Assembly: GCF_024502345.1 (NCBI RefSeq)
Contig: NZ_JALDNN010000003.1
Length of the DNA stretch: 64,000 bases
Direction: 5' to 3' (one strand)
Source of the DNA: Escherichia coli
GTDB lineage: Bacteria > Pseudomonadota > Gammaproteobacteria > Enterobacterales > Enterobacteriaceae
Translations under genes and position numbers: made by a program
Notes under the pieces: generated by a model
Seen by the model: the letters and a program-made list of their open reading frames with translations, nothing else
Told to the model about the DNA's origin: nothing
Databases searched by the model: none
Shown: in pieces, positions 2,867 to 55,334 of the stretch
Layout: every line of letters begins with the position of its first letter
Numbering within the stretch: the first letter of the stretch is position 1

Positions 2867-2887
2867 AAAAAAAAGTAACTTTTTTTC
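2867..2887. promoter_or_regulatory. expanded variant of the GAAAAGTWACTTTTC box (G-A8-GTAAC-T7-CC)
   Basis: Near-perfect palindrome centred on GTAAC, about 95 bp upstream of the ParB-like-1 start. Confidence 0.5.
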
Positions 2888-2986
2888 CGGGGGTTATAGT
2901 ACGCGATCCGTCCGTTTTAAATTCTCGCTAAGGAGGGCAAATTTCACTTTAGTGTGAAAAGCGGGTACATAAAGCAGGAATATGTC

Positions 2987-3001
2987 GAAAAAGTTACTTT
3001 C
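2987..3001. promoter_or_regulatory. GAAAAGTWACTTTTC-type box (2 mismatches) with a CCCGGTTGCC extension
   Basis: The sequence gaaaaagttactttcccggttgcc has the same right-hand extension as the box at 20951. Confidence 0.5.
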
Positions 3002-3260
3002 CCGGTTGCCTGAAAAAATGCCGTTGCAGCAAACACAAGGTGTGAACACCCCCCCCGCCCCGGCGGCTCCGGGCAAAGGAGTATCCGATGAAGCTTTCCC
3101 GGCAGACCACAAATGATACGGCTGTAATCGAAGGCACCCGCAGATTACCGACCATATCGCCTCCCAGCGAGCCACCGAAGCCAAAAAAGACGGCATGAAT
3201 TTTAATGCAGGCGTTGAGCTTGCATCTAAAAGGAACTGTGCAACGAGGACAAACATTACC

Positions 3261-3461
3261 ATGATTGAACACCGCACAGAGATGCGCCAAACGGCCATTA
3301 AATCGCTTCAGGAAGCCGAAGAAGCATTGACGGCACTGGCTATGTCCTATGAGCTACAGCCCGATGATAAGGCCAGTTCGTGTCATCCACGGACCGGTAC
3401 TCTCTCCACGGCCAGCCAGGTACGGAAATTGCGCCGTGTCGTCGAAAAGCAGAAAACTTGA
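3261..3461 (+). CDS. hypothetical small protein, 66 aa (the ORF track starts at 3195)
   Basis: ATG at 3261 lies 11 nt after GAGGA. The ORF is followed by a good plus-strand hairpin with a T-run at 3540-3567. No homology is recognised. Confidence 0.35.
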   Translation: MIEHRTEMRQTAIKSLQEAEEALTALAMSYELQPDDKASSCHPRTGTLSTASQVRKLRRVVEKQKT

Positions 3462-3539
3462 AATTCGACAAGGCGGCGGGTAGCTATTTCCTGCATGTAC
3501 AAACTAACAAGGGTTTAGCCGACGATAGAAAGGAAAAAA

Positions 3540-3567
3540 GGGTTTCCCCGACCGGAGAAACCCTTTT
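3540..3567 (+). terminator. rho-independent-type terminator
   Basis: Stem GGGTTTC / GAAACCC around a 10-nt loop, followed by TTTT and preceded by an A-run, so it could act in both directions. Confidence 0.55.
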
Positions 3568-3632: not shown

Positions 3633-3791
3633 CTACTTACCGGATTCGTAGTCCATCACAGCCGACACTTCCCGTGTACCGTCTTTCAGCCTCAGTTCGC
3701 AGAGCGAATTGCGCGTAAGCCAGGTGAATATCAACAGCGTAAGACATACTATCAATACGCACAAAACAACGGGTTGGTTCGGCAGTTTCAT
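3633..3791 (-). CDS. hok: Hok-family membrane toxin (type I toxin-antitoxin), 52 aa
   Basis: [52 protein letters not shown] has the same length and near-identical architecture as R1 Hok. The ORF-track entry 3633-3935 is an in-frame upstream extension (mok-like leader region). Confidence 0.9.
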
Positions 3792-3839
3792 GGCCTTCTT
3801 CTCCTTGCATTTAAGCGGGTAAGAGGCTACTCTGAATGT

Positions 3840-3899
3840 GACTAGCATACAGGGGCCTCGGGTTAATTTGAAAAAATTACTCGGGGCTTTCTGCTTTTT
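3840..3899 (+). ncRNA. sok: candidate Sok-like antisense RNA
   Basis: Antisense to the hok leader. TTGCAT (3805-3810), a 17-nt spacer and TACTCT (3828-3833) precede a long imperfect hairpin at 3856-3886 and a T-run ending near 3899. The ends are inferred, not measured. Confidence 0.4.
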
Positions 3900-4148
3900 A
3901 CCACAGTCAAACAGTGAATCTGCTGGCTGGGGCAAAAGCCTCCAGCACCGAGGTTATTATACCACCCCGCCCCTTTTAAACGAACAGATCGTTCTCCTAA
4001 ATATTTAATAAGTAAGTATTTCAGGTTTTGCTGCTTCGCAGGCTGTAACAGCAGGTGTCTGACGTAATAACTGATTAAACAGACGGATTCGAATCTCAAC
4101 ACTCAACGACGCCAGCTCGCCTGTTCCCCCGCTTCTTTCCGGCTGTAA

Positions 4149-9140: not shown

Positions 9141-9347
9141 TTAATGGACCTGGCTGGCCTTTTTTTCCGCGTTCTTGTTGTAATCAACGCGGGCAATAAC
9201 GACGGCAGCGGCCAGGAGTGCAGCGAGACCGCCGTAGAATACTGGTCGGGAGATATCGACGAACATATCGCTCAGGTTATCAACGCCGAGGAGAAATACG
9301 CAGATAATGACGATAAAGCGAACAGGTTTGCTGTAGAACAATTTCAT
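9141..9347 (-). CDS. small membrane protein, 68 aa
   Basis: Two hydrophobic helices (FIVIICVFLLGV and GGLAALLAAAVVIA). Confidence 0.55.
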   Translation of the reverse strand: MKLFYSKPVRFIVIICVFLLGVDNLSDMFVDISRPVFYGGLAALLAAAVVIARVDYNKNAEKKASQVH

Positions 9348-9546: not shown

Positions 9547-9561
9547 GAAAAGTAACTTTTC
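9547..9561. promoter_or_regulatory. perfect GAAAAGTWACTTTTC box
   Basis: Reads GAAAAGTAACTTTTC. Intergenic, about 200 bp upstream of the 9347 start. Confidence 0.6.
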
Positions 9562-15784: not shown

Positions 15785-15799
15785 TAAAAGTTACTTTTC
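15785..15799. promoter_or_regulatory. GAAAAGTWACTTTTC box (1 mismatch, TAAAAGTTACTTTTC)
   Basis: 46 bp upstream of the 15739 start and 120 bp downstream of the dndC-like stop. Confidence 0.55.
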
Positions 15800-15921: not shown

Positions 15922-18297
15922 TCACGCCAGCAGGCGGACCATACGTTTCAACAGAGGCCTTAACAACGCCGCCGTCCTCTCCCGGCATTCATCCACATGC
16001 CGGAACCCCGTCTTTTTCGAAGACTGGGGGCCGGATAACATCCGCAGCTCCCAGATGACTTCCCGTAAGGTTCCTTCGCGCTCCGGCGAAATACACCCGG
16101 CTAATGTCTCCAGAAAGCGTTTTCTTACGGCCCGGTAATACAGACGTTCTTCCGGTTGCTGTGACGAAATCCGCAGGTTACAGAGGGTCAGGACAGCGTC
16201 AAGAGTCCTTGCCTTCAGTTCGTCTCCCGTCCGGGCCAGATGTAGCTGTTGTTCTGTCTCCAGTTGCGTCGTTATCCACCCCCCCAGAGGGGTTTTGTTG
16301 TAGGTGTGCAGTGCCACACAGGCCGCAACACAACACCAGAAGCGCAGTTTCTGCCGCTGCCCCCGCAGTTTGCGGGCTACGAGCAAGCGATAATCGCTGT
16401 CGGTCAGGATCTTGAAACGGCGGCTGGCGAGCAGAGACGGCAGCGGCGTCTGGTCGTTAATGCCAAGACGTGAATAGGCCTGCCCGCGTTGAGCGAGTCG
16501 ATGGTACACCGCACCTTTCCCCCGCGAAATTCGGACGGCGCCGTATCTAAGCAGGTACTGTGCCGCCGCCACAGGGGTAAACTCACCGTCAGACACACGC
16601 TGGCGTAATCCGTCATATTCATGCCAGATAATCCAGGATGCCGTGTCTTCATCGACCGTCAGCTCATCCTCTTCTTCGAATGCAACGATGTTCAGGCCTT
16701 CCCCGCTACTCATCAGACTGCGGGAAGCTCGCTCATCCTCCCGACCGTCAAAATAGGCTATTTCGGATGACGGATCGGACAGCCCGTCAAATGACGTCCC
16801 GATACGGCCTTCCGGCAACTTCATCCAGCGTGGTGCTGGCATCGGCGTGCGGGGTACTGGTTGCATAGCTGGCTCATCGTCGAGAAGATCCAGTGCCCCC
16901 CCTTCCCACACCTGGCGGTAAAGTTCAATGGCACGAAATGGGCGCGGGTTAAAGCAATGCAGTGACCAGAGAAAGTCGATATGCAGCACGTTAGCCTCCT
17001 GCACCAGTCGAAACTGCGGCTCCGACATGCGGCGGTTATGCGCGGTATCTTCGATCTCGCCTGAAAGTAACTTTTCATGCACCGCTGCGGCCCGCTGAGC
17101 CTCCACGTAATCGAGGCTGCAACAGATATGGAACAGTCTTTCGGTCAGGGACGACGAGAACACATTGGGCTGAAGACGCACATACCCGCCCTCAAACACT
17201 TTGCGTCCGATATAATCCCGAAGGCTCCAGTCGTACTGAATTTTGGTCAGGAAACGCTGAAGGCGGTTGAGACCAGCCTGGTAGCCGTACTTCTCAGGGT
17301 CAGTGCGGAGTAAGGTTTCCATCGAGTGATCAATGCCGACGGCGCAGCATAGCGAGCATCCATAGCGAGCGCCGCAGGCAGAAGACCGGACAGTGGATTT
17401 CTCCGGCGTCCAGATACATTCCCCGGTCGCGTCTTTGTAAAGCGTGGCGAGGCTGAAGTTGTCCGGCAAAAAGCTTGGCAGCGGAAATCGCGCCAGAGAA
17501 CCACAGGCCATCAGAAATGACCAGATATCCTGTGCCCGCCACTCTTTCACCGGGTACAGTTCGCCGCCGTGCTCCGTGAGCGAGACGCTGTCCGCCTGCC
17601 CGCCCATTCTTAGGATGTTGTCTGCCCGACGGGCGCTCTCATCATCGCGGGAACCCAGCATCAGGCACACTTTGTTGCGGACAGAAGCAGGTGCATTTTT
17701 CAGATAACGGGCTTTGGCCTGGCGCAGTGGAGAACGCTTTAGATCTGTAGCGCATTGACGCGTAGAAGAATTTGTCCAGGTTGGAAGTCCACGCCCGGTC
17801 AGAATGCGTCCGACCCAGCTCTGGGTCATGGACGGGCGGGCCACAAGGACGGTCAAAGGCAGTTCTTGTTCGGCAATAAAGGCTCTGAGCTGGCTGAGAA
17901 CCTGCGTGGCCTGATGATGCATCTCAGGGTTTTCAATCAGGGTGTCAGACATCTGAATGAAGTGGTGCTGGCTGACGTTCGACCCGTTTCGTACTGCACG
18001 GATCAAGGCCATAAGGAACAAGTGCAGTAGCGAGTGAGAGTCTTTCCCGCCGCTGTAGCCGACGCACATGGTCCAGCCTTCGGTAATCGCATGATAAATG
18101 GCACTGGTTGCCGTCGTCACGCGCGAAGCGAGACTGATCGGCTCACCGGCATCAGTATAATTCAGATCCGCATCGGTCTTCAGTGTCTGCCAGACATCGC
18201 CCCATTTATCCTGCGTCAGAATGGCAGCGTTAGCCGCCTCAGAAAATTGAATTTCTGAGGGTAATTCAAGGAATGTTTCTTTCATTTCGATATACAT
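15922..18297 (-). CDS. DndC-like PP-loop ATP pyrophosphatase (PAPS-reductase superfamily) with a long unknown C-terminal extension, about 791 aa
   Basis: PP-loop motif CVGYSGGKDSHS plus the cysteine cluster CGARYGCSLCCAVGIDHSME, as in DndC. The start is set at the ATG 6 nt after AGGA; the track ORF starts at 18351. Confidence 0.7.
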   Translation of the reverse strand: MYIEMKETFLELPSEIQFSEAANAAILTQDKWGDVWQTLKTDADLNYTDAGEPISLASRVTTATSAIYHAITEGWTMCVGYSGGKDSHSLLHLFLMALIRAVRNGSNVSQHHFIQMSDTLIENPEMHHQATQVLSQLRAFIAEQELPLTVLVARPSMTQSWVGRILTGRGLPTWTNSSTRQCATDLKRSPLRQAKARYLKNAPASVRNKVCLMLGSRDDESARRADNILRMGGQADSVSLTEHGGELYPVKEWRAQDIWSFLMACGSLARFPLPSFLPDNFSLATLYKDATGECIWTPEKSTVRSSACGARYGCSLCCAVGIDHSMETLLRTDPEKYGYQAGLNRLQRFLTKIQYDWSLRDYIGRKVFEGGYVRLQPNVFSSSLTERLFHICCSLDYVEAQRAAAVHEKLLSGEIEDTAHNRRMSEPQFRLVQEANVLHIDFLWSLHCFNPRPFRAIELYRQVWEGGALDLLDDEPAMQPVPRTPMPAPRWMKLPEGRIGTSFDGLSDPSSEIAYFDGREDERASRSLMSSGEGLNIVAFEEEDELTVDEDTASWIIWHEYDGLRQRVSDGEFTPVAAAQYLLRYGAVRISRGKGAVYHRLAQRGQAYSRLGINDQTPLPSLLASRRFKILTDSDYRLLVARKLRGQRQKLRFWCCVAACVALHTYNKTPLGGWITTQLETEQQLHLARTGDELKARTLDAVLTLCNLRISSQQPEERLYYRAVRKRFLETLAGCISPEREGTLREVIWELRMLSGPQSSKKTGFRHVDECRERTAALLRPLLKRMVRLLA

Positions 18298-20950: not shown

Positions 20951-20965
20951 GAAAAGTTACTTTTC
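20951..20965. promoter_or_regulatory. perfect GAAAAGTWACTTTTC box with a CCCGGTTGCC extension
   Basis: The sequence is GAAAAGTTACTTTTCccggttgcc, and the site is intergenic. Confidence 0.6.
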
Positions 20966-22324: not shown

Positions 22325-22379
22325 GGTGATGCTGCCAACTTACTGATTTAGTGTATGATGGTGTTTTTGAGGTGCTCCA

Positions 22380-24661: not shown

Positions 24662-24676
24662 GAAAAGTTACTTTTC
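24662..24676. promoter_or_regulatory. perfect GAAAAGTWACTTTTC box
   Basis: Reads GAAAAGTTACTTTTC, about 70 bp upstream of the 24747-24778 promoter candidate. Confidence 0.6.
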
Positions 24677-31510: not shown

Positions 31511-33129
31511 ATGAAAAATCAGGCTATAGCTTTGGCTATGGCTATGCTCGGAGTCTCAGTTCCGGCATCTGCTCAAATTTATGAATCCATCTTCACAGAT
31601 ACCAATGGTATTGAAGTTCACGCCCCCTCAACCCGGCTGTTGCTGAATCCGGCCTCACCGGTAACCCTGACGCTCATTGCCGGTCTTGACCGTTATGTGA
31701 ATGTCAAAATCACCAGCGCCACCGGCACGCAACTGCTGAACACCACTACTACGCGCACCAGCGTATCCGACCGTCTGAAGGCCGGAGATGGCAGCGAATT
31801 TTACGGAAAAAAAGTAACTTTACCGGTGCTTGGCGAAGGCAGGTCGGTTGTGCAGGTCAGTATTCTGGATCTGAATCAGTCCGTTGTAGCCACCTACAGC
31901 TACAACTGGCTGGTAGACACCACACCGCTGTCTGTTAATGCCCTCACAGGCAACGCCGCCTATGGATCAACTGCGGGTAGCGTCTGGAAAATGGGGCTGG
32001 AGGCCACGGGGCAGTTTGATTTTACCTCAACCAATGTCACGGACGTAAATGGCATCGAGAAAGGTATGTTTTATGTCTATCACAGTAACGGCAGTCTGTT
32101 CAGTACGACGCAGATGTAGTACGACGTGACTGGTCAGAAGATGTATCACACTTACTCAAAAAACTCGGTCAAAGGCGCGGGTATTCCCGACAGCAATCTG
32201 GATGAAGATTTCACGGCCAAGGTAGTCATTTATGACAACGCAGGAAACACCCGAACCCTTCCGTTGCAGCTCTTTCGATATGATAACTATCTGGGCGGTC
32301 CGAGATCCGCAAAGCTCCGCCAGCGTGGTGCCAGGGGTTTCCGGATATCCGGCCTATTCAGCTGGGATGACCGTTAATGAGAATCCGATTCATCTTGTAT
32401 ATCGCGTGCCAAAGTCCAACTATCGGTCATATGCCGAGGGCGGCCTGCTATTCTATAACCTGTATTCTTCCCCGACCGAGATTGCGACGGACAGCACCTA
32501 TACCTACGTTGAAATGATCCTGCCCTAGTACGGTGGTATACGGGCTGGAGAATATCCGTATAGCTCTGGCGGATAACCTGACAACACCCCGGATCACCCG
32601 TCTTCAGATAACCGGAGGGCCAACGGCAGATAACGTTGAGCTCACGTGGTCACCTGCTGGCACGAACGTTTATGCGCCAGAATATCCAAGGCTGTTCCCC
32701 TCATTCGAGCCTTCCGAAAACTATGCGCTTAGCGTGACGGTCTCCGACAGTCAGTCGAACAGCAAAACTTATACCCAGAAATTCAGCTACCTCCTGAATA
32801 ACCTAGTGCAGTTGCATAACCTGCGAACCTTATCCGTCAGTTCAGCACTCAAAACGTCGTTAAATGAGCCTCTTGCTTATCTGTCAACCAACGTGTTGCG
32901 TAAGTCCAACGGTGAGATTGCAAAAGACGTCCAGAGTGCGACGCTAACGGTACGTAAAGACGCTGCCTTCGGTATTAAGTTCAACGGCGTGCAGGCCGCG
33001 CTTGGTGAATCTGTAGAGGTGAAAATTGATATGGGGCTCGGTGATAACCTTTTAGTACCTATATACCCTGCTGAAAACGGCAAAGTGGGTACATCCGAGT
33101 TCATGATCCAGATCGATGAGCTGAAGTAA
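31511..33129 (+). pseudogene. decayed third member of the Ig-like protein family
   Basis: Four consecutive ORF pieces (31511-32119, 32126-32377, 32232-32528, 32533-33129) align in order with the 834-aa paralog. There is an in-frame TAG at 32117, a frameshift near 32290, and about 250 codons missing at about 32525. Confidence 0.8.
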
Positions 33130-33164
33130 TGAGAATGGGCCGTCGGTAGTACTGGCGGCTTAAC

Positions 33165-33179
33165 GAAAGTAACTTTTTC
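33165..33179. promoter_or_regulatory. GAAAAGTWACTTTTC-type box shifted by 1 nt (GAAAGTAACTTTTTC)
   Basis: Intergenic, between the Ig-like pseudogene and the Rep region. Confidence 0.45.
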
Positions 33180-38785: not shown

Positions 38786-38800
38786 GAAAAGTAACTTTTC
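38786..38800. promoter_or_regulatory. perfect GAAAAGTWACTTTTC box
   Basis: Reads GAAAAGTAACTTTTC, about 175 bp upstream of the Ig-like gene start. Confidence 0.6.
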
Positions 38801-40923: not shown

Positions 40924-41182
40924 AGCACCAGTCCTTTTTGAAGGGTTTATCTGATACCAGGATAACAACCTTGAACAAAAAGCTAATAGGTTGGCTGACA
41001 TGAAAATGGAGAAATTAACACTGCGGAAAGTCAGAAAGACAGATGTGGTTTTAATCAGAAGAAACGGGCCGGAGACAGGACAAAAAAACCCCTACATAGT
41101 AGGGGCAACGGGGGGAGAGCCTGGGTGGCTCGCTCTAAAATATCGTACTTCTTATTGTAGGCTTCTCACACTCTGAAATAAT

Positions 41183-42346
41183 TCATTTAAGCCTGTGCTG
41201 GGGGGGGGGGGCGGATTGCGGTTCTCCGCCATTTTTATCGTTTTTCTTGGTTTTGTAAGTCACTTTTTCCCCTTTCAATCGGGCTTGCCGATTTTCGGCC
41301 CGGCGAAGCTGCTTGTTTTCTGATTCCGTAATCTCACTTTGCAGGTTCTTGAGCATCTCCAACATGCTCCGGTTCAGCGTAAAGGTAATTTCTTCATCTT
41401 CGCTGGAGTCGGTCACCTCCGGCAACTCGATATCACCGAGTTTCTGCAATAGACTCGTCGTAATGAGTTTGACCCCTTCGACGGCTTTTGTAGCGAGAAC
41501 TGGTGGAACACGTGCGGGTTTAAAATCGGAAGGGACAACACGGATCTGCCCGCGTGGCGTTTTCTTAATCTGGATACCGCTTGAATCAGCCTTTTCAAGG
41601 TCTGCGATCATCTTTTCGATCCGCGCAACAGCTTCCGTTTCACCGAACTCATCGATAAGGGACAGGACTGCTACATAGGAAATGGCATCGGCATGGATCA
41701 GTTTTTTGAGATAGACACAGCAGCCGGTCAAGCGAATAAGAGCAGCAATGGTGGTATTACTTTTTCCCTCACGTTCGGCAATACGGTCAAGCGACCATCC
41801 ACCCAGCGCCTGAAGACGTCGGTAGGATTCACCCAAAGCCACAGGAGAAAGAGCTAGGCCACGGTTTCCGTCAATCGTTGTCAGTTCGCAGCTGATCTCA
41901 TCGGCTTTCATCTCGATGCAAAGAATGGTGAGGTTAGAATGCCCTTCTGCCACAGCCATCAAAGCAGCCTTTAAACGGCAATGTCCCTGGCGAACGTACG
42001 GAATGCCGTCTTTGATCAGAACGCGGATAGGGTCTACGTAATCACCCCGGATGTACGCATTCTTGATGTTATTGAGATGATCGGCGACTTCTGGCAACTG
42101 GTAATAAGCTTCCCCCATTCCCATCTCACGGGAGTTGAATCCTTCCGTGATTTGAACCACGGTTGGGCTGATAGCCCATGCTTTCTGTTCAGTGACTTCA
42201 TTACAAAGGTCAGGGTTCGCGTCGCGGAACTGCTTCATACCACTGACGAATCGGCCGGAACCGGTCACTGTTGAAAAAGACACGAGTGGGGATTTAAAGA
42301 CCCGTGAGTTAGTTTGCTGTTGGGAATCAGTCATCAGATCACTCAT
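41183..42346 (-). CDS. ParB/Srx-fold (KorB-like) protein, paralog 2, 387 aa
   Basis: GFNSREMGMGEAYYQLPEVADHLNNIKNAY...RQGHCRLKAA plus an HTH-like region. Homolog of 1572-2777 and 45571-46647. Confidence 0.8.
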   Translation of the reverse strand: MSDLMTDSQQQTNSRVFKSPLVSFSTVTGSGRFVSGMKQFRDANPDLCNEVTEQKAWAISPTVVQITEGFNSREMGMGEAYYQLPEVADHLNNIKNAYIRGDYVDPIRVLIKDGIPYVRQGHCRLKAALMAVAEGHSNLTILCIEMKADEISCELTTIDGNRGLALSPVALGESYRRLQALGGWSLDRIAEREGKSNTTIAALIRLTGCCVYLKKLIHADAISYVAVLSLIDEFGETEAVARIEKMIADLEKADSSGIQIKKTPRGQIRVVPSDFKPARVPPVLATKAVEGVKLITTSLLQKLGDIELPEVTDSSEDEEITFTLNRSMLEMLKNLQSEITESENKQLRRAENRQARLKGEKVTYKTKKNDKNGGEPQSAPPPQHRLK

Positions 42347-42705
42347 AGATACTCCGTTGAATTCTTTTTTGTCATACCTTTCATCTGTGCGTGAATACTA
42401 CCGGAAAAAAAAATCTCACTTTTTCGTTAAAAAGGTACTTTTTGGGTCTATTCCGAATTGAACGAGGAAAATTGTTCTGGCGATCAGAACAAAAAGAAAA
42501 AATAAATCAAATAAAACAGATGGTTATGGTTAATTCGTAAAGGATAAACTTTTTTCTGAGAAGTGAAAAAAAATTAAAAAATGTGTCGAAATGACAATCT
42601 CGTTAACAAAAGCCACGTTTTTTCCTGCTCATACCTTATTGGTAGCAATCCGCCTTTCGGTACCATAAGTGTGGCATACCGATAAAGCTGAACGGAGAAG
42701 ACTCG

Positions 42706-43530: not shown

Positions 43531-43544
43531 GCGGCGATCAGTAG

Positions 43545-44366
43545 TTAGTCGATCGGGCTTATCCATTCCTCGAAGCTCAGCACTTCGGAATGGTCACGGC
43601 TGGCATAGGGAATAAACTGAAGCTCTTCAATTGATCGCTCCCCTCTCTTACCTTCGCATATAAACGATATGAACCCCTGATCTGCAAGTTGGGTAAGGAC
43701 ATTCATGATTCGTACGTTCACTGTATGCAACTGAAGATCATTCACGATATCGGTAATTTTGTGTGAATGGCGCCGGGACTTTCGCAAATAATCAAAGATG
43801 ACAAACTGGGCATTCCGTCGCTTCAATAATTTTTCCGTCATAAATTCCTGAATTAATCCCCCCAGCAACATCAGGAACGGACGAAGTACCCCAGGGAACG
43901 TTAACGTATAAGACTGCGATGTTTTGACCAGAGTGAAGGACGTCAGGAAGCTGAAGTTTAGTCGCTTCTTTGAATACGGGACATAAACAGCCAATGTCGT
44001 AGACAAGTAAGTAAGCAATTCTTCCAGATGAGCGCGTGTGATCATGACCGTCTTATCGCTATTACGAAGACCGTGATAATCAATAAATGCCACTCTGGCA
44101 CGACTCAGCCACTCGTGAATGCTTATGGATACAGTGAACGGTGCGTTTTCATCGGCAGAAATGACGCCGTGCTCAGCGAGTTGGTTATGGATAAGCATAG
44201 ACAGCTGGTAAAATGGAAAACGGCAGGATGGATGACACTGTAGGCCAGTTAGCGTTAGCTTTGCATTATCCAAGTCATCGAGCGGAAAAGTAACTTTTCG
44301 GGAAATAATTTTTGCTGACGTTCTTGCTGACTTGCGGATGAACCCAAGTCCAAGATCATTTTGCAT
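43545..44366 (-). CDS. hypothetical protein, 273 aa
   Basis: GGAG RBS 7 nt upstream of the ATG. It contains a perfect palindromic box in codons 23-27. Confidence 0.6.
   Translation of the reverse strand: MQNDLGLGFIRKSARTSAKIISRKVTFPLDDLDNAKLTLTGLQCHPSCRFPFYQLSMLIHNQLAEHGVISADENAPFTVSISIHEWLSRARVAFIDYHGLRNSDKTVMITRAHLEELLTYLSTTLAVYVPYSKKRLNFSFLTSFTLVKTSQSYTLTFPGVLRPFLMLLGGLIQEFMTEKLLKRRNAQFVIFDYLRKSRRHSHKITDIVNDLQLHTVNVRIMNVLTQLADQGFISFICEGKRGERSIEELQFIPYASRDHSEVLSFEEWISPID
44285..44299. promoter_or_regulatory. perfect GAAAAGTWACTTTTC box, intragenic
   Basis: Reads GAAAAGTAACTTTTC, 67 nt inside the 273-aa ORF. Confidence 0.5.
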
Positions 44367-44648
44367 ATATCACTCCGTTTTAACAAAATCTCCTTAACCT
44401 ATATGTTAAGAAGAGACAAAAAATTAAAAAATATAATTAATAAGATTATCATTTTTAATTTAAAAGATTAGTTAATAACGGGTGTTGAATTTAAAATAAA
44501 TCGGCTTATTTTCGGAGTGTAAAACCGGGTAAAAACCCGATGCGTGAGCAACAGATTTGACGTGAGTGAGTCGGCACGACAGTGCAGAAAGCCGGTGGCT
44601 AATGTAAAAACGGCCTGTATTTGGGAGTTCCGGTCACTAGACACCAGG

Positions 44649-45356: not shown

Positions 45357-45553
45357 TTTTTAAGGTTCTCCAGTCGAGCCTCCACGAGCTGTAAAGCGTC
45401 AGTTACCTTCTGTACGTATTGATCGTGCCCTTCTTCAAAATGATCAAAACGCTTTCCAGCCTTGATCTCTTCAATGTTGCGATCGAGTGTGCCTTTTGTA
45501 ATAAGTAGATCGTTATAAGTATTAATTACAGTAAACTGTGCAATCTTGTCCAT
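45353..45553 (-). CDS. hypothetical protein, 66 aa
   Basis: Lies between the ParB-like-3 and zinc-finger genes on the same strand, with tight spacing. Confidence 0.5.
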   Translation of the reverse strand: MDKIAQFTVINTYNDLLITKGTLDRNIEEIKAGKRFDHFEEGHDQYVQKVTDALQLVEARLENLKK

Positions 45554-45570
45554 AAACGGTCCTTAGCATT

Positions 45571-46647
45571 CTACTCACTTGTTAACAGGTCACGAATTTC
45601 ATGCAGTTCTGTAACCTTAGATTTTGGAATGATGATAGCAGTATTTTCATCATTCAGAAGGCTTAATAAAAGCTGGAGTTTTGCTTCATCTAGAGTGATC
45701 TTTACACTTTCCGTTGTCTTTGTGATGGAAGTGCTGCTGATGTTCGTAAATAAATTGGAATGTTGTCCGTCGAAAATTAATTCGGTGAGTTTATTACTGT
45801 CGTTTAGTGCTGGCCGTACAGTATCAATCAGCCCGATAAATTCAGTTTTTAAGCGTTCAGTTTTTTTATGAGAAAGCCGTTTAATACCCAATGAACTGCG
45901 AGTGATGGATTTTGTTTTAACTTCCTTAGGAATAACATGAACAGGGAGTGTTTCCGGGTTATCTAGTTTCTCATCGTTTGATGATGTTTGAACGCTTGAT
46001 GTCTTAGATAAAACAGGTTCTGGTTCAGTTGATGGTACTAAAAGAGAACACGATTCCAAATGTGCAAGGACTTTTGCATGGTCATTGGAATACTTCAACA
46101 TGATCTCAATCGCGAGTGTTTTTTTAATCAGGTTTAGACTGATTAAACGTTGTAGTTCTAAAGGCATATCAAGGATTTTAAGCTGGTTACGAATAGCAGT
46201 GCTAGACCGTTGATAGCGCATAGCAAGGGATTCAACGGTAGAGCCAAGCTTCAGCGCCTCTGCCAGTGCATAAGCTAAGGCTACGGGATTAAGACCGTTA
46301 TTCCTATTCCCATCAAGGTTCTCCAGGTATTCTTCACTTTTATTCTTATAGTTCATAACAACTACTGAAATGAGCTGAATATCAGCTCCTTCCGCAAGAG
46401 CAAGAGATAGTGCTCTGTAACGGCAATGCCCCTGCCTTACAACGTAATTGGAGTCTTTCTTAACAACCTTAATTAAATCGACTCGTCTGCCCTCTTTATA
46501 GGCTTGTTTAATAGAAACAATGGTCGATTTTACTGGTTCCTGTTCATAACAAAGTTCACCAATTACCGCTTCACGTGGATTGAATCCAGATTCGATAAAA
46601 AGTGCTTTAGGACTGATCTCAATAATCTGATAGTCGCAGTGATTCAT
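45571..46647 (-). CDS. ParB/Srx-fold (KorB-like) protein, paralog 3, 358 aa
   Basis: GFNPREAVIGELCYE...RQGHCRYRALSLA plus an HTH-like region. AAGGAGG RBS. AT-rich codon usage, unlike paralogs 1 and 2. Confidence 0.8.
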   Translation of the reverse strand: MNHCDYQIIEISPKALFIESGFNPREAVIGELCYEQEPVKSTIVSIKQAYKEGRRVDLIKVVKKDSNYVVRQGHCRYRALSLALAEGADIQLISVVVMNYKNKSEEYLENLDGNRNNGLNPVALAYALAEALKLGSTVESLAMRYQRSSTAIRNQLKILDMPLELQRLISLNLIKKTLAIEIMLKYSNDHAKVLAHLESCSLLVPSTEPEPVLSKTSSVQTSSNDEKLDNPETLPVHVIPKEVKTKSITRSSLGIKRLSHKKTERLKTEFIGLIDTVRPALNDSNKLTELIFDGQHSNLFTNISSTSITKTTESVKITLDEAKLQLLLSLLNDENTAIIIPKSKVTELHEIRDLLTSE

Positions 46648-47044
46648 ATAACCTCCTTTTTATTACATGATACATTAATTGACTCAGTTTCAAATAACCC
46701 AAAAGCAAAAAACAATTAATTCGGTGCTTGACTGTAATTTTAGTTATGAAGGAATTAGGCCATTTTAATTTAAAATTTTTAAATCTGAATGGTTTGAAAT
46801 TAATATATCTTAAAAGCTTCAGATTGATTGATACTTCTTCCGGCTGCATTCCCTACTTGGCTAGAGTCCGAACCTGAACTTTTTAGGTCAGAGTTGGTTA
46901 ACAGACGGAATTTATCCACGTTTTCCACAAGTTAGATCAATTCTTTAGATCAAGAGAGATCAAGAGAGTACAAAAAAGATCACAGGTTCCGTAAATGACT
47001 GATTTTATTATGGAATAAGCATGATCAGGCATTCAGGTGCATGT

Positions 47045-48057: not shown

Positions 48058-48530
48058 TGCTCCGGGTATAGTACGCACAAAAGTTACTTTGGATGTAATG
48101 AGGAGTATGGGCATTCATCCAAATGCTTTTTAATGTTTCTCCGGATTTGAACACCCTTCCCTGTTTCCAAACTTCCTATCATTTCTGATACCCGGGTTCT
48201 TCTGGTATTCGTTCGAATGCTTTTCAGAAAAAATCATGCTTGCTAGTTGAGACAACGTAACCTATTCATTTTGCTAGTTTAATAAGACTCATTCATACAT
48301 ATGCCTTTAACTACACTACCCTCCATCGTGTTGTATTGGGCTTTAAACGCAAATCCCTATACTCCTTGTGCCACTCGGCGTATTTACAGTTCCTTAACGC
48401 CTGCAAACGACTGGGATATGAGCCTGGTCGACGGCATTTTATGAATATGCAGGCCAATGAAGGACCTAGAGAAATAACATAACATTCTGATAATAAATGA
48501 AAATTACTCAAATTGGATATCAAGGAGATG

Positions 48531-49141
48531 AAAAGCATTTGTTTCAATGGAGAGCAAAAAAGTGCCTTTTGTATAAAAGCATTTGCTCCAATGGCGGCAG
48601 AAAAGTGCCTTTTGTATAAAAGCATTTGCTTCAATGGCGGCAGAAAAGTGCCTTTTGAAAAAAGCATTTGTATGAATGCTGCGGTGAAAGTTGCTTTTGG
48701 TCGGGAAGCAGGGCTCGCAAGGGACAGTGTAAGGTGCCTTTTTTCGAAAAGCATTTGCACGAATAGGAGAATGCAAGTTGCCTTTGGTCGGAAAGCATTT
48801 GAATGAATGGGGAAGTGTAAGTTGCCTTTGGTTGGAAAGCATTTGCATGAATGAGTCCCTGATAGGTGTCTTTGTTTGAAAAGCATTTGCATGAATGGAT
48901 TCAGAAGAAGTGACTTTTACGATAAGCATTTGAATGAATGGGCACCGCAGACGCGCATTCCCCAATCAGCATTTGAATGAATGAGCTCCGCAGTTTTGCT
49001 TTCATCGAACAGCATTCGTATGAATGTGCTCCGCAGAGGTGGCTTTCATTGAAAAGCATTTGTATGAATGGGGGATACATAATCCTTGTGGGTGAAAAGC
49101 ACTCGCATCAATGGGGGAAAAGTGACTTTTGGAATGTCATC
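48531..49141. repeat. origin iteron array, about 14 units with a period of 41-44 bp (AAAAGCATTTGYATGAATGG plus an AAAAGTGCCTTTT-type spacer)
   Basis: Unit starts near 48531, 48575, 48618, 48659, 48747, 48791, 48835, 48879, 48923, 48967, 49010, 49052 and 49095, plus one degenerate unit near 48703. The array ends in GAAAAGTGACTTTTG at 49127-49141. Inverted single iterons lie at 48111-48130 and about 48212-48229. Confidence 0.8.
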
Positions 49142-52165: not shown

Positions 52166-52166
52166 T

Positions 52167-52607
52167 ATGAGAAAAGCTACTTTTCTTACAGTGATCTCGT
52201 TTGGTTTAGTTGTCTTTTTGGGTACCAGTTATTACTACCAAACTAAGTATATCCCGAAAGGCACCGTGAATATATTTCCTGATGTCCACCGACAGGGTGA
52301 GATCGTTGATGATGCCTTTGAGAAAAGCACGATTGTTATAAGCGACCCAACGCTTGCGGATAAATTTGTTGGAAGTTCAACCGAGTCTGTCGGTCGGCAT
52401 GAAGTTAATGTAATAAAAGAATTGGGCACGCAAAATAATGGTTCGAAATTTGTTCATGATGAGTCTGATAAATCAGGTTTGACGGTTGGAGATAAATGGC
52501 CTAGGGCTGGTGAACCTTATATCGTGCCTCAGATGACAGAATACGAGCGGAATTTGAAAGTTAAGCGATTCCAGCAACCAAAGAATGGAGTTAATAATGG
52601 ACATTAA
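52167..52607 (+). CDS. exported protein of unknown function in the tra operon, 146 aa
   Basis: N-terminal signal/TM segment MRKATFLTVISFGLVVFLG. Tightly packed in the operon. Confidence 0.6.
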   Translation: MRKATFLTVISFGLVVFLGTSYYYQTKYIPKGTVNIFPDVHRQGEIVDDAFEKSTIVISDPTLADKFVGSSTESVGRHEVNVIKELGTQNNGSKFVHDESDKSGLTVGDKWPRAGEPYIVPQMTEYERNLKVKRFQQPKNGVNNGH

Positions 52608-53955
52608 AAAGGCCTGGGAAAATAAAACTGTCAGAATCTCAGTAATTGGTGCTGCATTGATGGTATTGATTGTTGTCATCAGTCAATCAATCTTTACCAC
52701 ACCAGTTAAAAAAGAGAAGAAAACCCAGAAAAAAGATATGCAAACTGGATTCCTTATTGATGATTCACAAATGAACAAGCTGAGTAATGAGGAAAGCCAG
52801 AAGACTTATAACGAAATGGTAAGGCAGAACCGTATTGACCAGAACGCTGCCAAGGCTGACCGTGACAAAGCTGAAAAGGCTCAGCAAGAAAACAAAGCAC
52901 AGATAGCCAGTCTTGCTTCGCAAGTTCAGCAACTCACTACGCAGTTGACTGAAATGCAGACCTCAAGAAATGGTAATCGCAATCTCGATGCAGGCGGACC
53001 ACGCAACAACGTCAATGAACAAGCCCCAGCAAAGCCATACCAGCTTAATCCAAATGCAGCGGTGAACGGGGTTAGTTCTGGATACGCACCTATATCTCCG
53101 ACCCGAAACAGTCCAATGCGGACAATAACACAGAGTTCAATTAAGACAAACGGCACTGATGGTGTCATTCAGGTGATGCCGATATCAGAGAACCGGATCA
53201 GAGAGGGGCGCGAGGTTGTTGCGGGAAGTGAAAAGGCCCCAACGCGAACTATTCGCGGCGATGGGACTGCACCTGTTGATAGTAAAGCTCGTCATGCGGC
53301 CCGTAAGGATGAAATGTTTCTTCCAGCGACGTCAATTATTACTGGGGTGCTAATTACCGGGCTGGAAGCTCCAACGAGTTTGTCCTCTAAAGCAGAACCG
53401 ATGCCGGTTACCATGCGCATTAAAAAAGACATCATCATGCCTAACAATTACACGATGGATTTGCGTGATTGTAATTTATTGGGTTCTGCTGTGGGGGATC
53501 TGGCATCTCAGCGTGCGTACATTAGGGCAACCTCCATATCGTGTGTCAACTCGAAAGGAAAAGCATTCGACGTAATAGTGGAAGCTTATGCGGTTAGTGA
53601 AAATGACGGGAAAAATGGCATTCGTGGGAATCTGATAAGCAGAAATGGAAATGCGATTGCAGGTTCTGCGTTTGCAGGAGGGCTGTCAGCATTGGCGGGG
53701 AGTCTGAGTCCATCAAAGGTGTCTTCGCTTAATATAGATCCAAACTCTACGGCACAATACCAATCGCCAAACATAGGTGCATTAGGAGCGCTGGCCGGAG
53801 CCGGTGCAGCTCAGGGGGGTCTAAACCGTCTTGTGGACTACTATACGTCAATAGCTGAGCAGCAGTGGCCAATTGTAGAAATTAGCCCAGGGCGCCCAAT
53901 TACTTTTGTCGTTCAAAAAGGGGCGACAATACCTACAAACCTGACAAGCCGCTGA
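52597..53955 (+). CDS. trhB: TraB/VirB10-like mating-pair-formation protein, about 452 aa
   Basis: N-terminal TM segment, a coiled-coil/proline-rich linker and a conserved C-terminal domain. GGAG lies 6 nt upstream of the ATG at 52597. Confidence 0.75.
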   Translation: MDIKKAWENKTVRISVIGAALMVLIVVISQSIFTTPVKKEKKTQKKDMQTGFLIDDSQMNKLSNEESQKTYNEMVRQNRIDQNAAKADRDKAEKAQQENKAQIASLASQVQQLTTQLTEMQTSRNGNRNLDAGGPRNNVNEQAPAKPYQLNPNAAVNGVSSGYAPISPTRNSPMRTITQSSIKTNGTDGVIQVMPISENRIREGREVVAGSEKAPTRTIRGDGTAPVDSKARHAARKDEMFLPATSIITGVLITGLEAPTSLSSKAEPMPVTMRIKKDIIMPNNYTMDLRDCNLLGSAVGDLASQRAYIRATSISCVNSKGKAFDVIVEAYAVSENDGKNGIRGNLISRNGNAIAGSAFAGGLSALAGSLSPSKVSSLNIDPNSTAQYQSPNIGALGALAGAGAAQGGLNRLVDYYTSIAEQQWPIVEISPGRPITFVVQKGATIPTNLTSR

Positions 53956-53963
53956 GAATAATT

Positions 53964-54476
53964 ATGGAAAATAACAACGACAATGAATCACCAAAAAAGA
54001 GTGAGTCTGCTGATAGCTTAAATATCGACGCGGCTAAACCGGTTGGGGGTATACGTACTACCAAAAAAGTAACTTTAGAGATCGATATCGAGAAAACTCT
54101 TAAGTATCTGATGGTCGCAGGCCTGGCAGTTCTTATCGTGATCTATGGATACAAGGGTGGACGTTTTGTATATGACAACTTCAAAGCAATGTCGCAACCG
54201 GCCTACCAGATTGCCGTGCTGGATATGCAAACTTTAAGAAAAGTATTTAATAAGCAAAATCCGGTGTTGGATTCGCAGCAATCCAAAACTAACTTTGAAA
54301 ATTATTTTAAGGCATTAATGAAGGTTTACCGTGAACGTGGCTATTTGGTTATTGATGCATCCTTGGCAGTAACTATTCCAGAGAATGTTGAAATAGTCTC
54401 TTATATCGACCTTGGTGGAAGTTTTGGTGAGGTACAATCTCTTCCAGGCGAACCTAAAGAAAGTGAGATTCGATAA
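53964..54476 (+). CDS. membrane-anchored tra-operon protein of unknown function, 170 aa
   Basis: Single TM segment (YLMVAGLAVLIVIYGY). Confidence 0.6.
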   Translation: MENNNDNESPKKSESADSLNIDAAKPVGGIRTTKKVTLEIDIEKTLKYLMVAGLAVLIVIYGYKGGRFVYDNFKAMSQPAYQIAVLDMQTLRKVFNKQNPVLDSQQSKTNFENYFKALMKVYRERGYLVIDASLAVTIPENVEIVSYIDLGGSFGEVQSLPGEPKESEIR

Positions 54477-55334
54477 TTGAAAAAGTTACTTTTGTCTCTG
54501 CTGATTTCCATTACCTCAGCGTGCCCGCCGCTTACTCTGGCTGTTGAAAATGTATTAAACAATCGTGATGCCGCTGCGTTAATGGAAAAGGCAAAAGAAG
54601 GTGGAGTATCAACGAAACCTTTAGACGGTGTATTGGCGAAAATGAAAAGCTATAAGCCTAAAGATGCTATTTACATCCCTACTGGCGGTCTTTATTTGTT
54701 CCAGGATGAACGTTCTCAGTTGATGGCGGTGACCACTGACGGACGGTATACAATCACGGGGGGGAGCGTCATGGACATTCTTCAGAGAAAGTCAGTGTTA
54801 TCAGTAGAGGATATACGAAAGTCGTTCTTTATTAATTTAGACGACGCCCCTTTCCCTCTTGAAACTGTGGCATCGATACCTTTAGGAAACCCAAAACTCA
54901 AACGTCAAGCGGCAATATTTATTACGCTTGATTGTGACGGTTGTCAGGATTTAATAAAGAAATTCTATGATGAACGCGAAAAGTATCGGGTCGATATAGT
55001 TTTAATCCCCTCCCCCGGCGAGCCAAAGCAGGAATTGCGTCAATTATGGTGCAGTAAAGAAAAAGGCAAAGTGAATGATCTTGATATCTTGCGTTGGCTT
55101 ATGGGTAATAAGGCCGATATAGAAAAACGACTCCTGACGAAAGAAGAGGCAGAAGCATGTCCGGCTGAACCGTTAGTCGCGTCATTAATGCTGGCTGGCA
55201 TTTATAAATTACAGGGAGTCCCCTCAGTTGTAAGACAGGATGGACTCGCTGGTAATGGCATACCGAAAGATTTTGATTACTGGTTAAAACAAAGTGTCGA
55301 ACCCTTACTCAAAAACCCATTTGATACTAATTAA
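54477..55334 (+). CDS. periplasmic thioredoxin-fold DsbC-like thiol:disulfide interchange protein, 285 aa
   Basis: Signal peptide plus a CxxC active site in FITLDCDGCQDL. F-like T4SS loci commonly carry such a gene. Confidence 0.7.
   Translation: MKKLLLSLLISITSACPPLTLAVENVLNNRDAAALMEKAKEGGVSTKPLDGVLAKMKSYKPKDAIYIPTGGLYLFQDERSQLMAVTTDGRYTITGGSVMDILQRKSVLSVEDIRKSFFINLDDAPFPLETVASIPLGNPKLKRQAAIFITLDCDGCQDLIKKFYDEREKYRVDIVLIPSPGEPKQELRQLWCSKEKGKVNDLDILRWLMGNKADIEKRLLTKEEAEACPAEPLVASLMLAGIYKLQGVPSVVRQDGLAGNGIPKDFDYWLKQSVEPLLKNPFDTN

Follow-up and report, generated by a model that had tools for sequence, protein, structure and literature searches.

A dispersed palindrome on IncHI plasmid backbones: a putative KorB-operator-like network and its candidate ParB-like binder

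Introduction

Identical short palindromes dispersed over a plasmid backbone, in promoter-proximal, promoter-distal and intragenic positions, are known from the IncP plasmid RK2, where the ParB-fold global regulator KorB has 12 OB sites (TTTAGCSGCTAAA). KorB pairs with the ParA homologue IncC and thereby also serves as a partition protein. Other ParB-like proteins regulate transcription without a partition role, such as VirB, with its virS site (Shigella pINV), and BisD, with bisS (ICEclc), which controls transfer competence. Both are orphan ParB-fold proteins on mobile elements that use palindromic loading sites and act on promoters at a distance. On the Bacillus subtilis chromosome, Noc is a ParA-less ParB paralogue with many dispersed palindromes marking the replicon (~70 NBS). 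On the IncC/IncA plasmids, the ParB protein has 12-14 dispersed parS sites, with binding to 14 demonstrated by EMSA (PMC10954446).

Here, we analyse a 64,000-nucleotide stretch of Escherichia coli DNA (the window), which is an IncHI1 backbone of the R27/pHCM1 type. IncHI plasmids resemble IncC/IncA plasmids in being MOBH/MPF-F conjugative plasmids whose backbone palindromes are both intergenic and intragenic, and they share silencing by H-NS with pINV. They differ from RK2 in having 40-80 copies of a palindrome that is unrelated to OB in sequence. VirB and BisD, by comparison, have very few sites (two for bisS), and Noc differs in its chromosomal location, its function in cell division and its site sequence. 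In the searchable literature, we found no paper describing the dispersed IncHI palindrome or its binder.

A 13-bp core shared across IncHI backbones

A first-pass annotation of the window had proposed a 15-bp palindrome in five perfect copies (at 9547, 20951, 24662, 38786 and 44285), too many to be chance. All five lie at those coordinates, and the enrichment is real: 100 dinucleotide-preserving shuffles yielded none, and 13 sites occur at ≤2 mismatches against 0.21 expected. The 15-mer, however, is not the conserved unit. Comparing the window with whole IncHI plasmids reduces the motif to a palindromic 13-bp core, AAAAGTWACTTTT, present in the window in 8 perfect copies and 17 at ≤1 mismatch. 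It is the sole over-represented palindrome and shows no meaningful hairpin potential. Counts on whole plasmids, set against a third-order Markov expectation (≤0.05 perfect copies), extend the enrichment to three diverged plasmids, where it reaches 500-1000-fold:

R27: 25 perfect cores, 42 at ≤1 mismatch, 0.03 perfect expected
R478 (IncHI2): 21 perfect cores, 47 at ≤1 mismatch, 0.05 perfect expected
Klebsiella oxytoca IncHI1B/FIB plasmid: 36 perfect cores, 77 at ≤1 mismatch, 0.04 perfect expected

The core also occurs in plasmids of Photorhabdus, Yersinia and Buttiauxella. The network is family-wide across IncHI backbones, not peculiar to the window, with one site per 3-4 kb.

Sites and their surroundings

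The imperfect copies of the first-pass annotation exist, and its account of how the sites lie relative to genes is correct, but four of its coordinates were off: 2987 should read 2988-3002, 17061 should read 17062-17076, 33165 should read 33164-33178, and 49127-49141 should read 49117-49131. The copies at 33164, 42429, 48078 and 54064 have three mismatches to the 15-mer and one to the core. The three ParB-like genes of the window and the sites are as follows.

1572..2777, minus strand: ParB-like-1 (P1; R27 R0104), 401 aa, leading candidate binder
41183..42346, minus strand: ParB-like-2 (P2; R27 R0042), 385-387 aa, second candidate binder
45571..46647, minus strand: ParB-like-3 (P3; R27 R0037), 358 aa, unlikely candidate binder
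2870..2884: perfect core inside G-A8-GTAAC-T7; proximal site, ~94 bp upstream of the ParB-like-1 start codon
2988..3002: 1 mismatch to core; distal site, ~212 bp upstream of ParB-like-1; flank CCGGTTGCC
9547..9561: perfect 15-mer, intergenic, ~200 bp upstream of a small minus-strand gene (9141-9347)
15785..15799: perfect core, 46 bp upstream of a 154-aa gene
17062..17076: weak, 1 mismatch to core, inside a PAPS-reductase-family (dndC-like) gene
20951..20965: perfect 15-mer, intergenic, 297 bp upstream of a 110-aa gene; flank CCGGTTGCC
24662..24676: perfect 15-mer, ~93 bp upstream of an ORF starting at 24769
31809..31823: 1 mismatch to core, inside a disrupted Ig-like gene
33164..33178: 1 mismatch to core, intergenic, ~340 bp upstream of a second RepB-family initiator gene (33521)
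38786..38800: perfect 15-mer, 176 bp upstream of an Ig-like gene (start 38610)
42429..42443: variant AAAAGGTACTTTT, ~84 bp upstream of ParB-like-2
44285..44299: perfect 15-mer inside a 273-aa ORF, codons 23-27, read as KVTF
48078..48092: 1 mismatch to core, 21 bp downstream of the repHI1A stop codon
49117..49131: centre G, not W; ~280 bp upstream of trhA (AC transfer operon)
52171..52185: 1 mismatch, over codons 2-6 of htdO
54064..54078: weak, 1 mismatch to core, inside ORF 53964-54476; not alignable to R478
54480..54494: perfect core at the start of htdT, signal-peptide codons KKLLL

Many of these sites have counterparts in R478. The core is retained there at 2870 and 54480, and the site at 2988 corresponds to a perfect 15-mer with an identical flank CCGGTTGCC (L044 has this site too). 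The site at 15785, downstream of the PAPS-reductase-family gene, is syntenic with an R478 site at 236252, and the R478 orthologue of the 110-aa gene likewise has an upstream site. Within genes, the copy at 31809 is retained at the equal position of R478's intact Ig-like gene, 15/15 bases survive at 44285 with flanks 67% identical, and another 1-mismatch version occupies the position of 52171. The site at 17062 is not retained (three mismatches to the core in R478) and is probably non-functional. Upstream sites like that at 38786 accompany the Ig-like gene orthologues of R478 and the K. oxytoca plasmid, and the rep gene is followed by sites in both (at 985 in R478; five sites in K. oxytoca). 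The variant upstream of ParB-like-2 is retained unchanged in R478, with a perfect core at the equivalent Photorhabdus and Buttiauxella loci. Finally, trhA has upstream sites in all three lineages.

Selection on core and placement

When R27 and R478 are compared, core positions agree at 94% and flanking positions at 73% (p = 5e-20), a difference that holds within genes too; the central W interchanges freely. In R27, 21 of 42 sites are intergenic although only 20% of the DNA is non-coding (p = 2e-5), and 76 kb of R478 accessory DNA contains zero sites. Site positions are also conserved in related plasmids. Fifteen of the 20 R27 genes with an upstream site have one in R478 as well, compared with 6 of 114 genes without (p = 2e-11), and placement is kept in synteny even where the flanks can no longer be aligned. 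The intragenic copies lie in unrelated genes and use all three reading frames. Putative targets common to the three lineages are the ParB-like-1 gene, trhR, the oriT/H operon, trhA and an Ig-like gene.

Codon usage (as in MKKLLL signal peptides), AT-tract composition or duplicated repeats might have left such a motif as a by-product with no function, and three intragenic copies in R27 are indeed KKLLL codons at signal-peptide starts. We give this explanation next to no chance. It is already contradicted by the enrichment (>500-fold over third-order Markov), by a core far better conserved than its flanks, by the intergenic bias (half of the sites) and by the syntenic placement; moreover, the flanks are unrelated among sites, except for a four-site subset with the common flank CCGGTTGCC. 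Enrichment and conserved positions instead support the proposal of a mixed intergenic and intragenic network, in which the sites, dispersed and kept by selection, would serve as two-fold-symmetric protein-binding sites of the KorB-operator kind. Because it is dispersed over the conserved backbone of IncHI resistance plasmids and held by selection, the palindrome almost certainly marks where a plasmid regulator docks.

Partition and the centromere reading

The palindrome had also been read as parS, and the window had been said to encode no partner ParA for its three ParB-like proteins. The latter is true only insofar as no parA adjoins any of the three genes, since the type Ia parA of the Par1 system lies in the window:

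from 62752, running off the 3' end of the window: parA of Par1

This gene is preceded by a large tandem array, 54 bp in ~35 copies, with a conserved unit, ATTTAACCCCCTTAATCGCCA, common to the window and R478, and Par1 ParB is P1-type (PF08775). The palindrome was rejected as the Par1 centromere, given this array and the lack of any palindrome upstream of parA in three lineages. A dispersed set of true parS centromeres for Par1 ParA/ParB, as in IncC plasmids, is accordingly very improbable. It has a precedent in the IncC partition ParB, for which 14 dispersed palindromes serve as parS, and each of the three lineages does have one site 0.6-1 kb downstream of parB, but such a site is expected by chance at one site per 3-4 kb. 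Par1 has, however, its own array directly upstream of parA. In the Klebsiella lineage, Par1 ParB is 46% identical and a different, 66-bp array takes the place of the 54-bp one, yet the palindrome is unchanged. In addition, expression of parA and parB is reported to be independent of the plasmid-wide circuit. The IncC core, TTTCACATGTGAAA, overlaps the parA promoter, and EMSA shows that the partition ParB binds it, whereas neither the IncHI parA promoter nor the IncC locus examined contains the IncHI motif. R27 deletions lacking the ParB-like genes, described below, are stable, which also speaks against parS.

IncHI plasmids have two separate partition systems, unlike RK2. A further difference from KorB is that the IncHI candidates lack an adjacent ParA and their loss is tolerated.

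ParB-like-1 as candidate binder

The first-pass annotation looked to the ParB-like proteins for the binder, and they remain the best candidates, owing to the modelled fold of ParB-like-1 and the conserved site cluster upstream of its gene. ParB-like-1 comprises a ParB N-terminal domain, an HTH, a Pro/Thr-rich linker and a conserved C-terminal helical domain. It matches Pfam HTH_ParB, TIGR00180 and PDB profiles of ParB, Spo0J and Noc; a Pfam scan of the ParB-like proteins gave no KorB-domain match. Its AlphaFold model (pLDDT >90 over residues 20-250) matches the KorB/ParB/Noc type: in Foldseek, KorB 8qa9 is best (E = 6e-8), followed by ParB and Noc, and the matches cover the N-terminal domain and HTH. 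Recognition-helix residues E182, Q183, H184 and R186 are ≥90% conserved in orthologues down to 44% identity.

A site pair or multi-site cluster upstream of the ParB-like-1 gene is retained in every lineage examined. The two-site arrangement occurs in IncHI1, IncHI2 and L044, and Yersinia has the proximal site. In the K. oxytoca plasmid, L044 and Yersinia (L042), the proximal site has the same A-tract/T-tract form and precedes the orthologue by 80-100 bp, and in Klebsiella lineages this region holds the densest cluster (6 sites in 750 bp). ParB-like-2 is the only other ParB-like paralogue in the K. oxytoca lineage, and its R27 gene (R0042) is highly expressed in microarrays (PMC7366339 supplement). 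ParB-like-3, a weak match to the Noc model, is an unlikely binder; it has no separate orthologue in the motif-rich K. oxytoca plasmid and no site upstream of its gene. Scans for DNA-binding domains covered ten backbone proteins that are unnamed or regulatory, of which P1-P3 alone matched, and ten more from the partition, transfer-regulator and Tus-like groups, of which Par1 ParB and Tus alone matched. The deposited annotation names no further backbone gene as a sequence-specific binder.

Several points count against ParB-like-1. In a lineage with P1 just 36% identical, the core is unchanged while the recognition helix retains only H184 and R186, and three paralogues with differing recognition helices face a single palindrome family. 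Box II in the IncHI proteins is GxCR instead of GERR, which makes CTP-dependent clamping uncertain; VirB and BisD have intact CTP-binding motifs. R27 Del7 (lacking the ParB-like-1 homologue and its sites) and Del1 (lacking ParB-like-2 and ParB-like-3) are viable and stable (PMC4853401, Table S2), so, barring redundancy among the paralogues, these proteins would not be essential KorB-like repressors of lethal genes. Nor would an upstream site alone prove autoregulation by ParB-like-1: in IncC, a dispersed parS adjoins an orphan parB-like gene (a ParB-like-1 homologue, 31% identity), though the proven binder is the partition ParB (PMC10954446).

An invariant core alongside plasmid regulators only 30-36% identical across lineages, and its presence in Photorhabdus, Yersinia and Buttiauxella plasmids, would also suit a chromosomally encoded Enterobacterales DNA-binding protein whose sites the plasmids accumulated. 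We consider this improbable. The sites follow the plasmid backbone, and accessory DNA in the same hosts has none; furthermore, a protein that diverges can have its specificity frozen by a large set of sites. The standard example is chromosomal parS, common to ParB proteins ~35% identical. We know of no host regulator consensus that matches the motif.

A more serious competitor, still unlikely, is that the palindrome is the box of TrhR/TrhY, the master regulators of IncHI conjugation, which HtdA counters, or of some other backbone protein whose fold is unknown, much as IncC plasmids and SXT elements have their AcaCD or SetCD boxes. In an htdA mutant, 139 of the 181 expressed R27 genes are derepressed, and a regulon spanning the plasmid would suit a plasmid-wide box (PMC7366339). 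The TrhR/TrhY-dependent H and AC operons have upstream sites in three lineages, all of which encode TrhR, TrhY and HtdA orthologues; these proteins have no Pfam, NCBIfam or PDB match (TrhR AlphaFold pLDDT 40). What disfavours TrhR/TrhY is the F operon, the best-documented TrhR/TrhY-dependent promoter, which has no site at ≤2 mismatches to the core in R27, R478 or the K. oxytoca plasmid. No site precedes the Z operon in R27, and the R operon, reported to be HtdA-independent, has a conserved site 75-81 bp upstream. A perfect two-fold palindrome also suits a homodimer better than a TrhR/TrhY heteromer, and half of the sites are intragenic.

Weighing these readings, we put at about even the chance that AAAAGTWACTTTT is the recognition site of a dimeric IncHI-backbone protein, most likely ParB-like-1, to which ParB-like-2 may contribute. 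We infer the identity of the binder, as well as any repression, activation, spreading or sliding along DNA.

Proposed role of the network

ParB-like-1 would dock at 40-80 backbone-only sites, about half of them 45-300 bp upstream of operons and the remainder intragenic. It may regulate its own gene through the conserved upstream site pair or cluster. Other genes under its control would include the trhR regulator gene, the oriT-proximal H operon, the trhA pilus operon and the Ig-like genes, along with many small genes of the hok/sok-bearing region, which consists of uniformly oriented small ORFs. Docked in this way, ParB-like-1 would serve IncHI plasmids as a plasmid-wide regulator or organiser, comparable to KorB on RK2 or ParB on IncC plasmids.

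A dispersed palindrome on the IncHI backbone

The first-pass annotation described five perfect copies of the 15-bp palindrome GAAAAGTWACTTTTC, and all five lie exactly where it placed them (none was found in 100 dinucleotide-preserving shuffles). The enrichment that it claimed also holds, with 13 sites at ≤2 mismatches in the window against 0.21 expected. Its imperfect copies are present as well, but the coordinates of a few were off by 1 nt and those of one by 10 nt (true start 49117, not 49127). The conserved unit is a 13-bp core, AAAAGTWACTTTT, to which outer G/C are preferred additions in IncHI1 and IncHI2 only.

The window is IncHI1 backbone with >99.8% identity to pHCM1, R27 and many E. 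coli and Salmonella plasmids, and corresponds to the minus strand of R27. Three complete plasmids were assembled for comparison: R27 (IncHI1), the IncHI2 reference R478 and the K. oxytoca IncHI1B/IncFIB plasmid NZ_CP064110, which represents the Klebsiella lineage. The motif count on these whole plasmids gave 21-36 perfect cores against ≤0.05 expected, in line with the enrichment claimed for the window.

Copies of the 13-bp core, with the number of perfect cores expected under a third-order Markov model
Window: 8 perfect; 17 at ≤1 mismatch; 0.007 perfect expected
R27: 25 perfect; 42 at ≤1 mismatch; 0.03 perfect expected
R478: 21 perfect; 47 at ≤1 mismatch; 0.05 perfect expected
K. oxytoca plasmid: 36 perfect; 77 at ≤1 mismatch; 0.04 perfect expected

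The 5-bp arms, AAAGT-N-ACTTT, occur 46, 54 and 91 times in the three plasmids. The palindrome is also found in IncHI-like contigs of Photorhabdus, Buttiauxella, Yersinia, Pseudocitrobacter and others. R27, R478 and the K. oxytoca plasmid hold no other over-represented dispersed palindrome. Immediately after the palindrome, some sites have a further stretch in common, CCGGTTGCC, on one side only; these could be composite sites for a second factor, or relics of promoter duplication.

Sites followed by the CCGGTTGCC flank
Window 2988-3011
Window 20951-20974
R27 142404
R27 155502
R478 217413
L044 (a further lineage) ~9780

Selection on the sites and their placement

Chance is excluded as the source of the sites. 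For 24 R27 sites the surroundings can be aligned to R478, and there the 12 specified core positions show 94.1% identity, against 72.6% in the 150-bp flanks (Fisher p = 5e-20). The central W exchanges A and T freely between plasmids, as expected of an uncontacted centre in a dimer site. Half of the R27 sites (21 of 42) fall outside annotated CDSs, which leave only 20.4% of the plasmid as non-coding (binomial p = 1.9e-5). The intragenic copies occur in all three reading frames and in unrelated proteins (encoding KVTF ten times, KKLLL three times and KSNF three times), so a protein motif does not explain them. Judged by this pattern of constraint, a two-fold-symmetric protein almost certainly binds the palindrome.

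Placement is conserved too. Where an R27 gene has a site ≤400 bp upstream, its R478 orthologue also has an upstream site in 15 of 20 cases, as compared with 6 of 114 for R27 genes without one (odds ratio 54, p = 2.4e-11), and positions are kept between the two plasmids even where the intergenic flanks fail to align. The Klebsiella lineage, though distant, has five targets in common with the other two: ParB-like-1, trhR, the mobI/H operon at oriT, trhA and an Ig-like gene. The accessory DNA of R478, on the other hand, has 0 sites over two stretches (~76 kb in total) that carry resistance, mer, sil, pco and Tn7-like genes. Comparing the plasmids thus shows a set of putative dimer-type sites that is confined to the backbone and conserved in placement at five regulatory nodes. 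The scatter that had been likened to that of KorB operators is real, with many copies of one short palindrome spread over the backbone, at promoters and inside genes.

An Ig-like gene at window 31511-33129 is in pieces (31511-32119, 32126-32377 and 32533-33129) where R478 has one 2.4-kb ORF; it looks like a pseudogene, and it retains a conserved copy of the palindrome. At R27 117434-117530, trhG and a HAD-domain gene converge, and two strong sites 82 bp apart occupy the gap between their 3' ends; all start codons are far away, and a promoter-operator role does not explain that pair. An IS1 copy sits between backbone genes at window ~22315-23100.

Explanations at the level of RNA or replication were also considered. 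A structured RNA or intrinsic terminator was rejected, as the sites form no stable hairpin better than shuffled sequence: minimum free energies are weak (-3.3 to -7.6 kcal/mol; z-scores -1.0 to +0.2 against shuffles), and Rfam has no matches at palindrome sites. Iterons or other Rep-binding repeats, which would be direct repeats at regular spacing beside a rep gene, were rejected because the dispersed sites are palindromes at irregular intervals; the true RepHI1A iterons are 43-44-bp repeats at window 48531-49070. Each of these iterons contains AAAAG-TGC-CTTTT (e.g. at 48600 and 48643), that is, the palindrome arms around another central triplet, a variant written AAAAGTGCCTTTT. Several palindrome copies lie just downstream of a rep gene in all three lineages. 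As for promoters, sigma-70 consensus scans found promoter-like sites to be fewer or no more numerous than in shuffles, with no consistent geometry relative to the palindrome.

Partition and the Par1 locus

The first-pass annotation likened the palindrome to parS and reported no partner ParA in the window. The latter was mistaken: the parA of a type Ia partition locus, Par1, starts in the window at 62752. Because the window ends 5 nt before its stop codon, this gene is absent from the ORF listing. No parA adjoins any of the three ParB-like genes, however.

Par1 features in the window
59604-59850: 4.6 further copies of the 54-bp repeat
60652-62488: tandem array of ~35 copies of a 54-bp repeat, directly upstream of parA
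62752-64000, plus strand: Par1 type Ia parA, running off the end 5 nt before the stop codon

The 54-bp array is also periodic at 266 and 320 bp, and its core, ATTTAACCCCCTTAATCGCCA, recurs upstream of the R478 parA at a 249-bp period. We take this core to resemble box A plus box B of the parS of P1 (the plasmid/phage). The Par1 ParB carries the P1-ParB C-terminal domain PF08775, and the array is probably the Par1 centromere of this P1-type ParB. In the Klebsiella plasmid, whose Par1 ParB is 46% identical, the array is a different one (27 copies of a 66-bp repeat). That is, the arrays upstream of parA differ where the Par1 ParB has diverged, and the palindrome is unchanged; the region upstream of parA is free of palindrome copies in all three plasmids (R27, R478 and the K. 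oxytoca plasmid).

R27 derivatives with published deletions of 5-7 kb are viable and match the wild type in stability (PMC4853401, Table S2). Del7 (90,001-96,150) takes out R0104, which encodes ParB-like-1, and both its sites, and Del1 (40,355-46,955) takes out R0037 to R0043; deletions each removing several, but not all, sites did not destabilize R27 (PMC4853401). Taken together, the Par1 arrays, the site-free region upstream of parA and the stable deletions leave the partition reading without support. The only deletion in the published series that was unobtainable, Del18 (R27 168601-175050), spans consecutive hypothetical genes that are paralogues of one another; a perfect intragenic site (172256) lies in one of them.

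ParB-like proteins as candidate binders

Twenty backbone proteins were scanned for DNA-binding domains against Pfam and ten against NCBIfam. Among the scanned proteins, matches were limited to the Par1 ParB, a Tus-like protein and three orphan ParB-like paralogues, and the deposited annotation names no other backbone gene as a sequence-specific binder.

Orphan ParB-like genes located by domain scans
Window 1572-2777: ParB-like-1 (R27 R0104)
Window 41183-42346: ParB-like-2 (R27 R0042)
Window 45571-46647: ParB-like-3 (R27 R0037)

When the three paralogues are combined into a profile, it hits solved structures of ParB, Spo0J and Noc, and the match covers the N-terminal domain and HTH (4umk, E = 1.3e-11). 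The AlphaFold model of ParB-like-1 is confident at residues 20-250, and its closest PDB neighbours are RK2 KorB (8qa9, E = 5.6e-8), then ParB and Noc. Its layout is that of ParB: the N-terminal domain and HTH are followed by a Pro/Thr-rich linker of low conservation and then by a helical C-terminal domain, which is conserved. In the ParB-like proteins, Box II reads G(A/H)CRxxA rather than GERRxRA, with Cys in place of the first Arg, and Box III shows only partial similarity to ENxxR. With GxCR instead of GERR, CTP-dependent clamping is uncertain.

Indirect evidence favours ParB-like-1 among the paralogues as the binder. A conserved pair of sites lies upstream of ParB-like-1 in IncHI1, IncHI2 and a lineage of 61% identity. 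The proximal site (A7-9-GTWAC-T6-8) is 80-100 bp from the start codon and is kept in a Yersinia lineage (46% identity); the distal one lies ~120 bp further upstream, with the flank GGCAACCGG. In Klebsiella plasmids the densest site cluster (6 sites in 750 bp) is also upstream of ParB-like-1. This circumstantial pattern is what autoregulation by ParB-like-1 would produce. Recognition-helix residues E182, Q183, H184 and R186 of ParB-like-1 are ≥90% conserved among orthologues down to 44% identity, and the Klebsiella protein (36% identity) retains H184 and R186 only. Searches of genome contigs and proteins for distant ParB-like-1 homologues with another palindrome upstream returned only IncHI-type elements, all with the same motif; two low-identity plasmid matches are mere IncHI fragments carrying ParB-like-2. 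About 1 kb upstream of ParB-like-1, amid small hypothetical genes all on one strand, lies a sok antitoxin RNA with a hok/flmA toxin gene (window 3789-3950, minus strand; Rfam RF01794, 89 bits).

The recognition helices of ParB-like-2 and ParB-like-3 differ from that of ParB-like-1. Some 85 bp upstream of ParB-like-2 lies a variant site of its own, AAAAGGTACTTTT, which is conserved without change between IncHI1 and IncHI2. A search for a second family of over-represented palindromes, as possible sites for the other paralogues, found none. Motif density is highest in the Klebsiella lineage, yet only ParB-like-1 and a gene like ParB-like-2 occur there, and so ParB-like-3 is dispensable. Recognition of the palindrome by a host factor is possible but unsupported.

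Relation to the TrhR/TrhY regulon

The main rival explanation is that the palindrome is the box of the conjugation activators TrhR/TrhY, in the manner of AcaCD or SetCD. HtdA counteracts these activators, and an htdA mutant derepresses 139 of 181 expressed R27 genes at 25 °C (PMC7366339); a plasmid-wide box would suit such a plasmid-wide regulon. The distribution of sites, however, is not that of a box upstream of all TrhR/TrhY-dependent transfer operons (F, H, AC and Z) and no independent ones (dependencies from PMC7366339). Of the dependent operons, F, whose promoter is the standard example of TrhR/TrhY dependence, lacks a site in all three plasmids (R27, R478 and the K. oxytoca plasmid), and Z lacks one in R27. 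The R operon, which is independent of HtdA, does have a site; it is conserved and lies 75-81 bp upstream of trhR. With sites missing from F and Z and present at R, the palindrome binder looks to act upstream of, or parallel to, TrhR/TrhY, rather than being identical with it. Database searches detected no family or solved relative for TrhR or TrhY, and neither resembles the ParB-like profile; the AlphaFold model of TrhR (6-sequence alignment) has a pLDDT of 40 and is unusable.

A possible regulatory network and its significance

An orphan KorB-like protein may dock at the palindromes and regulate promoters 45-300 bp away, and might do so from the intragenic copies too. Once docked, it may repress, counter H-NS silencing (as VirB does), or load and slide (as KorB or BisD do). 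Such a network would belong conceptually with KorB/OB, where one short palindrome is likewise dispersed at promoters and in genes, and with ParB/parS of IncC plasmids, where one of the dispersed parS sites lies beside an orphan parB-like homologue of ParB-like-1. KorB, however, pairs with an adjacent ParA (IncC) and serves partition, whereas the IncHI candidates have no adjacent parA and their deletions are stable. On IncC plasmids the proven binder is the partition ParB, and upstream of the ParB-like-1 homologue there is neither the IncHI motif nor an obvious palindrome of its own. Four things set the IncHI network apart from both systems: how many sites it has and how densely they lie (one per 3-4 kb), the lack of a ParA partner for the candidate binder, the presence of two bona fide partition systems alongside it, and the degenerate CTP motif of the candidate. 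Full-text literature searches found no account of the palindrome or of an IncHI operator network; an earlier mention in older papers on R27 partition or its genome is possible.

A broader reading, which we think improbable, is that of a plasmid-specific chromatin layer: from 40-90 loading sites, an orphan ParB-fold protein whose CTP motif is degenerate would coat or mark the whole IncHI backbone, but not accessory DNA. From its position above trhR and oriT, this protein would determine how H-NS silencing is balanced against thermoregulated conjugation, and it would be the missing DNA-level component of the plasmid-wide HtdA/TrhR/TrhY regulon. If true, this would be a form of whole-replicon control that is neither partition nor operator repression of the classical kind.

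IncHI plasmids are vehicles of multidrug resistance in typhoid Salmonella; mcr-1 and genes for carbapenemases are found on IncHI2 and related plasmids. The temperature-dependent transfer of IncHI plasmids relies on a plasmid-wide regulatory circuit, for which we know of no DNA targets defined so far. One 13-bp element is found at the promoters of trhR, of the oriT/H operon and of the pilus operon, as well as at those of Ig-like conjugation proteins and of dozens of backbone genes of unknown function. It offers a testable handle on this circuit, with R0104 and R0042 as named candidate proteins, as well as a sequence signature of IncHI backbone DNA and a possible target for blocking transfer or establishment. 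Should an orphan ParB-like protein prove to be the binder, this would be, to our knowledge, the densest ParB-type site network on a plasmid, and another reuse of the ParB fold for regulation.
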